From IMG/VR virus record IMGVR_UViG_2563366883_000006: 5,076 nt of DNA. The stretch is one strand, 5' to 3'. The translations under genes and the position numbers were made by a program. The notes beneath the pieces are model-generated. The model did not search any database, was not told where the DNA came from, and saw only the letters and a list, made by a program, of their open reading frames with translations. This DNA is from a virus (lineage: Duplodnaviria > Heunggongvirae > Uroviricota > Caudoviricetes). This document shows positions 3,718-3,942 of the stretch, piece after piece (positions within the stretch are counted from its first letter, which is position 1; every line of letters begins with the position of its first letter).

Positions 3718-3942
3718 TCAACACACTGGCTGTAATGCAGCGGATACCATGCGGCATTTAGCGGCATTCATCGTACACTCAACGGTTAGCTCTTCATTCG
3801 TGGCATTCACCTGAAAGGTCCGGGAGTGTAATTGCGTACATTTACCACTGAACGAACCTTCAACAAGAACACGACCACGCTGCAAAATACGGAACGGAAT
3901 TGTTCCCTGAAAAGGCTTTACGGTTACCAGTAATTTCTTCAT
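3718..3942 (-). CDS. Hypothetical small protein, 74 aa, four Cys, no signal peptide
   Basis: ATG at 3942 with GGAG 7 nt upstream (the track's longer form starts at a TTG). It begins 23 nt after the Rz stop, on the same strand. Translation MKKLLVTVKPFQGTIPFRILQRGRVLVEGSFSGKCTQLHSRTFQVNATNEELTVECTMNAAKCRMVSAALQPVC. I recognise no family. Confidence 0.5.
   Translation of the reverse strand: MKKLLVTVKPFQGTIPFRILQRGRVLVEGSFSGKCTQLHSRTFQVNATNEELTVECTMNAAKCRMVSAALQPVC

Follow-up and report, generated by a model that had tools for sequence, protein, structure and literature searches.

ORF74, an optional cargo gene behind Rz in lambdoid prophages, and the conserved non-coding element beside it

Introduction

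What is the role of a small gene that directly follows the spanin gene Rz in the late region of lambdoid prophages? The question is posed by a stretch of 5,076 nucleotides from a tailed-phage record (Caudoviricetes; IMG/VR record IMGVR_UViG_2563366883_000006), referred to below as the window, which is the late region of an HK97-type lambdoid prophage. A first-pass annotation of this DNA, made from the letters alone, had pointed to an open reading frame (ORF) of 74 codons on the minus strand, here termed ORF74, and had suggested that it may be a lysis accessory or cargo. Our analysis shows that ORF74 is a real protein-coding gene, that purifying selection acts on it, and that it is optional cargo: it forms a moron-type cassette between the Rz stop codon and a conserved element of about 185 nt.

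Results

ORF74 extends from an ATG at 3942-3940 to a TGA at 3720-3718 and encodes a protein of 74 amino acids (MKKLLVTVKPFQGTIPFRILQRGRVLVEGSFSGKCTQLHSRTFQVNATNEELTVECTMNAAKCRMVSAALQPVC). As the first-pass annotation had described, it lies on the same strand as Rz, begins 23 nt past the Rz stop codon (TAG, 3968-3966) and is preceded by a good Shine-Dalgarno (SD) motif, GGAG. This motif, in the form GGAG or GGAGG, is kept 5 nt before the start codon in every variant. The gene was recovered in 182 of 189 related loci and is intact in about 180 of these 182, with a couple of copies frameshifted or extended; 48 distinct DNA sequences are represented. Lack of conservation in related phages had been named beforehand as one mark of a spurious ORF, but ORF74 is conserved, with a median ratio of nonsynonymous to synonymous substitution rates (dN/dS) of 0.25 (mean dN 0.17, mean dS 0.68; 163 pairs with dS above 0.05). 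The protein of the window is encoded, without a single amino acid change, by nine different DNA variants. One short branch carries 16 nonsynonymous and two synonymous differences (Nd 16 : Sd 2). Positive selection was considered for this branch and rejected as not significant (binomial estimate, p about 0.17).

The gene is widespread. With the ORF plus its 23-nt upstream spacer as query, it was found in 1,244 of 5,426 complete Escherichia coli genomes (23%), where its annotation is always 'hypothetical'. Strain O157:H7 EDL933 encodes a protein identical to ORF74, and a stretch identical to the window is present in E. coli EC2, in which ORF74 corresponds to WP_000735655.1, a 'hypothetical protein'. 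Several phage records leave the gene unannotated. Literature searches with the ORF74 accession, the peptide and the PHROG identifiers gave no result.

The cargo character of ORF74 follows from the comparison of collinear genomes, among which the gene is present or absent at a known insertion site, and from its deviant base composition: its guanine-plus-cytosine (GC) content is 46.2%, compared to 55.1% for Rz and 58.5% for the downstream element. Phage BP-4795 possesses the same, near-identical Rz, followed within about 10 nt by the element, and no ORF74. Aligning it with the window defines an insert of approximately 265 nt, which consists of the spacer with the SD motif, ORF74, and some 15 additional nucleotides. 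The downstream element is found in 398 phage records, only 28 of which hold ORF74. In 23 loci the Rz stop codon is lost and the spacer is read through, so that Rz and ORF74 overlap in an ATGA (-4) arrangement. Since this overlap arises by loss of the stop codon and readthrough of the very same spacer, it is incidental and not a designed coupling.

We also searched for signals of transcription. A consensus scan revealed no promoter-like site upstream of ORF74, no terminator in the gap between Rz and ORF74, and no terminator-like site just downstream, although such a scan is crude and a weak or non-sigma-70 promoter could escape it. A promoter and terminator of its own, which would allow a moron to be expressed from the repressed prophage, were hence not detected by this approach. 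Because ORF74 is located on the same strand directly after Rz, with a conserved SD motif and no promoter-like site of its own, co-transcription with the late genes, including those for lysis, is the natural inference, in agreement with what the first-pass annotation had thought probable. This arrangement can be compared to that of the known lambdoid morons, which occupy the gap between Rz and cos or the terminase genes (lambda bor) and the gap between Q and S (stx). The ORF74 family uses the same two insertion sites and, like these morons, ORF74 shows presence/absence polymorphism between collinear phages and a deviant base composition. Lambda bor, with a promoter of its own, is expressed in lysogens. 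It differs from ORF74 in encoding a lipoprotein and in lying on the opposite strand, whereas the product of ORF74 is cytoplasmic, and the gene points the same way as the late operon and shows no detectable promoter or terminator of its own.

The first-pass annotation recognised no family for the ORF74 protein. This holds for Pfam (E<=0.1), NCBIfam, PADLOC (E<=1) and the sequences of the PDB, none of which gave a match; in the PHROGs collection, however, the protein belongs to phrog_2571, a family of unknown function (E=2.8e-28, 99.9 bits; residues 1-73 aligned to positions 100-172 of a profile of 291). A profile search of the full library with the ORF74 family retrieved 48 proteins, many of them standalone and 71-82 amino acids long, with 26-40% identity. 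A second, word-indexed search traced these to Salmonella, Citrobacter, Enterobacter, Cedecea and Yersinia, where none carries an assigned name; distant relatives match PHROG 2571 as well. The partial profile match had suggested a longer gene, broken by a frameshift, of which ORF74 would be a fragment. This was rejected, because most members are standalone proteins of 71-82 amino acids and the length of the profile is due to N15-type fusions.

AlphaFold2, run on an alignment of 21 sequences, predicts six strands and one short helix (mean predicted local distance difference test score, pLDDT, 90.5; predicted template modelling score, pTM, 0.76), and the model can be assigned with confidence to the all-beta sandwiches. 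No specific structural relative of the model was found. The profile search and structure prediction proposed in the first-pass annotation have thus placed the protein in a family and given it a predicted fold. Positions that are invariant or nearly so in the wider family are M1, V6, F17, Q21, G33, V45 and A68; the conserved positions comprise residues of the fold core and a few polar residues in loops (Q21, G33-K34, R/K41), and no conserved cluster of cysteine, histidine and aspartate is present. The protein had been described as lacking a signal peptide and a transmembrane segment, with which its sequence is consistent: on inspection, and with no dedicated predictor run, there is no lipobox, the hydrophobic run LLVTV spans only five residues, and residues 2-8 form a beta strand in the AlphaFold2 model.

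The N15-type members of the family are proteins of 198-280 amino acids with a beta-sandwich domain homologous to ORF74. The 198-residue protein of YDC107_1 (AUO37497.1), for example, matches PHROG 2571 with E=9e-108. Its gene, like ORF74, lies on the late strand and is flanked by the lysis genes and terminase. The N15-type protein adds a coiled-coil-like N-terminal part of about 100 amino acids and a C-terminal tail, whereas ORF74 is the bare domain. A further likeness was encountered in the HYR/Ig-like adhesin repeats of giant surface proteins of Bacteroidota, since 18-20 repeats in P0079 (2764 amino acids) and P0081 (4004 amino acids) match the profile of the ORF74 family. Both are beta-sandwich-type modules and share the motif C-x3-(I/Y)-x-R-T-Y-x-V-x-(A/D)-T-D. 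But each match spans only about 33 residues, the E-value is a sum over the repeats, and the proteins are extracellular and come from unrelated bacteria. A shared strand-turn-strand motif, and not homology, is the probable explanation, and the likeness was treated as uninformative.

Checking conservation and synteny, as had been suggested, also revealed relatives at sites other than behind Rz (Table 1). Relatives follow three different types of lysis cassettes, and in every locus that has late genes the family member points in their direction. In four divergent lineages, a gene for a protein of 67 amino acids (PHROG 4280, function unknown, no Pfam match) is located 40-60 nt downstream of the PHROG 2571 gene (L008, 4308-4511; L010, 4305-4508; L101, 2766-2981; L196, 4305-4508; locus numbers as in Table 1), which suggests that the two families form a two-gene module. 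The partner is absent from the clade of the window, the window contains no remnant of it (best tblastn E=2.3), and 148 loci have room for the partner and do not carry it. In a Salmonella prophage (L010), a gene with an Acb2/Tad1 hairpin (3650-3943), a family of anti-CBASS/anti-Thoeris sponges, immediately precedes the PHROG 2571 homolog in the stretch from the lysis genes to terminase.

The element downstream of ORF74 is conserved at 77-99% in the 398 lambdoid phage records mentioned above, with or without ORF74, including lambda, 933W-type phages, BP-4795 and N15-like phages. It is more conserved than the gene: in Stx2_EH2201, the element is 96% identical, compared to 83% (DNA) and 76% (protein) for ORF74. 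In other lambdoid phages it directly follows Rz or bor, as in 933W-type phages, where it is located after bor, and in lambda (NC_001416), where it is found at about 46,885-47,034 between bor and lambdap78. One N15-like phage (L004) harbors two copies (2468-2652 and 3415-3595), each placed after a cargo gene. Single-nucleotide indels between the copies make it unlikely that the element is coding.

The element is probably a structured RNA. For 11 diverged copies, RNAalifold predicts a long stem in which GUAUUCCUGCAU pairs with GUGCGGGGAUA, together with an outer helix and a terminal hairpin composed of UCCGGU, a 15-nt loop, and ACCGGA. With this structure, 97.7% of cells are paired, whereas slid controls reach 36-62%. 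Changes on both sides are seen in five pairs, a number reached by 7 of 500 shuffles, and the covariation score is 0.149, compared to a shuffled mean of 0.110 and reached by none of the 500 shuffles; these values come from only 11 copies, and the structure was derived from the same sequences as the covariation test. Owing to several G-U pairs, the structure is specific to the strand of the late transcript. When folded as a single sequence, the element is no more stable than shuffles, and it has no match in Rfam. An identity with the anti-small RNAs (anti-sRNAs) described in enterohaemorrhagic E. coli (EHEC) was rejected, as those map to the PR' site instead; a preprint on Pas sRNAs makes no mention of 'terminase', 'lysis', 'spanin' or 'endopeptidase'. 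In L029/L165 (2726-2798 and 4063-4187), the element is split by an insertion of about 1.26 kb whose junction shows a 3-nt overlap (positions 71-73), an arrangement resembling the insertion of an insertion sequence.

The features of the locus are listed in Table 1. On the minus strand, the window encodes in this order lysozyme, an ORF of 50 amino acids, Rz with embedded Rz1, and ORF74, followed by the non-coding stretch. Beyond it are found a lipoprotein with a TonB_C domain, YlcI/YnfO (on the plus strand), an HNH endonuclease, a repeat region, TerS and TerL.

Table 1. Positions of ORF74, its surroundings and its relatives (window coordinates, or locus)
Feature	Position or locus	Strand	Remarks
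ORF74 coding sequence (74 aa plus stop)	3718..3942	minus	PHROG 2571 member; RefSeq WP_000735655.1 'hypothetical protein'
Shine-Dalgarno GGAG	3948..3951	minus	5 nt upstream of the ORF74 ATG
Spacer, Rz stop to ORF74 ATG	3943..3965	minus	23 nt; 5' edge of the inserted cassette
Conserved non-coding element, ~185 nt	3520..3706	minus	Marks the cassette's 3' edge; candidate for a structured RNA in the late transcript; starts ~15 nt after the ORF74 stop
Rz (i-spanin)	3966..4433	minus	Immediately upstream of ORF74; PF03245, E=3e-50
Rz1 (o-spanin lipoprotein)	4028..4213	minus	Embedded in Rz, +1 frame; PF06085, E=1.5e-19
TonB-domain lipoprotein-like protein, 110 aa	3047-3379	minus	PF03544, E=1.3e-14; 43% GC
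Promoter-like site of the TonB-domain gene	3433-3406
Repeat region	2068-2212		HNH endonuclease-terS gap
Small ORF, 50 aa	4435-4587	minus	phrog_4493 (function unknown); ends at the Rz start
Terminator-like hairpin	4647-4679	minus	15-bp stem and U-rich tail
Relatives between lysis cassette and terminase	Citrobacter L008/9; Salmonella L010/11; Cedecea-type L194/5; Enterobacter L196/7; N15-like L004
Relative between lysis cassette and terminase	E. coli L101		After an M15-peptidase-type lysis cassette
Relatives between antiterminator Q and the holin gene	L012/13; L198/9		L198/9 beside HicAB, Ibs, HigBA
Relative in the early region	Yersinia L006/7		Beside a Ser/Thr kinase, ParDE, Erf

Some neighbors of ORF74 deserve mention in their own right. 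The gene for the TonB-domain lipoprotein has a promoter-like site of its own and resembles a bor-style moron; PHROGs labels its family phrog_1267 as 'Rz-like spanin', which is probably a misnomer. In the repeat region GTTAACAT occurs six times, against 0.12 occurrences expected by chance, and 2.5 perfect tandem repeats of a 23-nt unit are among them; the region is likely the terminase recognition (cos/cosB-like) region of the HK97-type packaging module. The strong terminator-like hairpin is located within a 180-nt gap between the lysozyme gene and the 50-codon ORF and Rz. In BP-4795 and the EDL933 prophage, the gap between the lysozyme gene and the 50-codon ORF is occupied by an antirepressor (ant) gene, which makes it another cargo slot, inside the lysis cassette. 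The conserved 50-codon ORF itself, annotated elsewhere with 37-48 amino acids, has a hydrophobic C-terminal segment and may encode a small membrane protein of the lysis cassette.

Discussion

We favor, at slightly better than even chances, the reading that ORF74 encodes a dispensable, late-expressed cytoplasmic accessory protein of the binding type, about 8 kDa in size. The protein would most likely be made only in lytic growth, from the Q-antiterminated late transcript, and its translation would start independently from its own conserved SD motif. Such late co-transcription is quite likely, given that no promoter-like site is found upstream, no terminator separates the gene from Rz, and its orientation is always that of the late genes. 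The protein would act by binding a component of the host or the phage late in infection. A binding rather than an enzymatic role appears fairly probable, since the protein is small and soluble and has no conserved cluster of a catalytic type, and since some members carry a fused coiled coil and many occur together with the 67-residue protein.

As to the process it might serve, counter-defence or host takeover is only a guess, and a tentative one. It is favored over a function in lysis because ORF74 is dispensable and its family moves between two late-operon moron sites and an early site. The neighborhood of the family is of an accessory kind, with the Acb2/Tad1-hairpin gene adjoining in one case and HigBA, HicAB and ParDE nearby elsewhere. 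Sponges of the Acb2/Tad1 type are, like ORF74, small, non-enzymatic, phage-encoded, and located in accessory hotspots; but there is no similarity in sequence or fold, no ligand-binding motif was identified, and the analogy is one of genomic setting only. The known anti-defence families in Pfam do not include a match to ORF74 (E<=0.1), nor was a specific fold match obtained.

Three observations would fit a lysis accessory. Such a protein would be made together with Rz, act in the cytoplasm on the timing of lysis or on the spanin or holin step, and be functionally analogous to small cytoplasmic lysis regulators such as T4 RIII. In 133 loci ORF74 either begins 23 nt past Rz or shares an ATGA overlap with it, relatives follow the last gene of two other types of lysis cassettes, and the other common site, the Q-holin gap, adjoins lysis genes, too. 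However, phages with the same Rz exist that lack ORF74, and few of the element-bearing phage records contain it (28 of 398). One lineage, that of Yersinia, carries the gene in the early region far from any lysis genes, so that linkage to the lysis cassette is not obligate. Unlike holins, antiholins and spanins, ORF74 shows no transmembrane segment, signal anchor or lipobox on inspection, and it has no lysis-related matches in Pfam or PHROGs. The ATGA overlap stems from the loss of the Rz stop codon and not from dedicated coupling. The cargo half of the initial proposal is thus borne out by the presence/absence polymorphism and the low GC content, whereas its lysis half is weakened by the absence of the gene from BP-4795 and by the relatives away from Rz; we regard a lysis accessory as unlikely.

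A defence, exclusion or toxin-type module is, in our judgment, quite improbable. According to this idea, ORF74 and the PHROG 4280 protein constitute a two-gene system that harms rival phages or the host, and the window copy is a solo remnant. The recurrence of the pairing in four lineages, with a gap of 40-60 nt, would agree with it, as would the HigBA, HicAB, ParDE and Ibs modules found as neighbors and the short branch on which nonsynonymous differences far exceed synonymous ones (16:2, not significant). But neither protein has a match in PADLOC, and no promoter-like site for expression in the lysogen was detected. Moreover, the solo form is far more common in E. coli, as seen in the 148 loci with room for a partner and the 1,244 genomes with ORF74, which is unexpected for a toxin in need of an antidote.

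The cysteines of ORF74 had been proposed to bind metal or to form disulfides. Their number, four, was counted correctly, while one position was off by one: they are residues 35, 56, 63 (not 62) and 74. A small protein holding zinc or iron, or stabilized by disulfides, could indeed be imagined from the four cysteines of the window copy and from the CxxC motif (GKCTEC, C35/C38) that most other clades of close relatives possess. In the window copy, however, the corresponding sequence is GKCTQL, without CxxC. In the close family C35 never varies and C56 hardly does, but C63 and C74 are limited to one clade, and some clades have only two cysteines. No cysteine column is conserved in the alignment of the wider family, and the N15-type homolog lacks all four positions. 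These patterns do not support a conserved site for metal or disulfides. Four conserved ligands, typically arranged in two CxxC/CxxH pairs as in zinc ribbons and other Cys4 proteins, are not present. In addition, the beta sandwich is predicted confidently without a ligand, and the cytoplasmic location disfavors disulfides, which makes this explanation very improbable.

The idea that ORF74 is spurious, with its conservation due to an RNA or DNA element or to a gene on the opposite strand instead of a protein, might draw on the conserved non-coding element next to it and on the phage records without an annotation, but it has virtually no chance and is already effectively refuted by the dN/dS of 0.25 in the ORF74 frame, the nine DNA variants encoding an identical protein, the same-length protein homologs at 26-40% identity, the SD motif kept throughout, the confident AlphaFold2 fold, and a DNA identity in L003 (83% for ORF74, 96% for the element) that is the pattern of a coding region and unlike that of a nucleic-acid element.

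A more far-reaching picture, which we consider doubtful, would make PHROG 2571, with or without PHROG 4280, a new family of late counter-defence or host-takeover proteins with an unseen small beta-sandwich fold. It would be spread as cassettes of a gene and a 3' structured RNA at the boundaries of lambdoid late operons, the element of about 185 nt being either an undescribed functional RNA or a recombination landmark that guides cargo exchange.

On present evidence, ORF74 is an ordinary uncharacterised moron and not a surprise, and a more interesting lead may be the RNA-like element next to it. The gene is nevertheless carried by about a quarter of the complete E. coli genomes, including EHEC O157:H7 EDL933, and by many Stx-converting phages, and on induction its expression probably accompanies that of Shiga toxin and the lysis genes. 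It has neither a name nor a history of study, and to learn whether it influences lysis, phage competition or host immunity would fill a small gap in the map of the late operon of medically important prophages.
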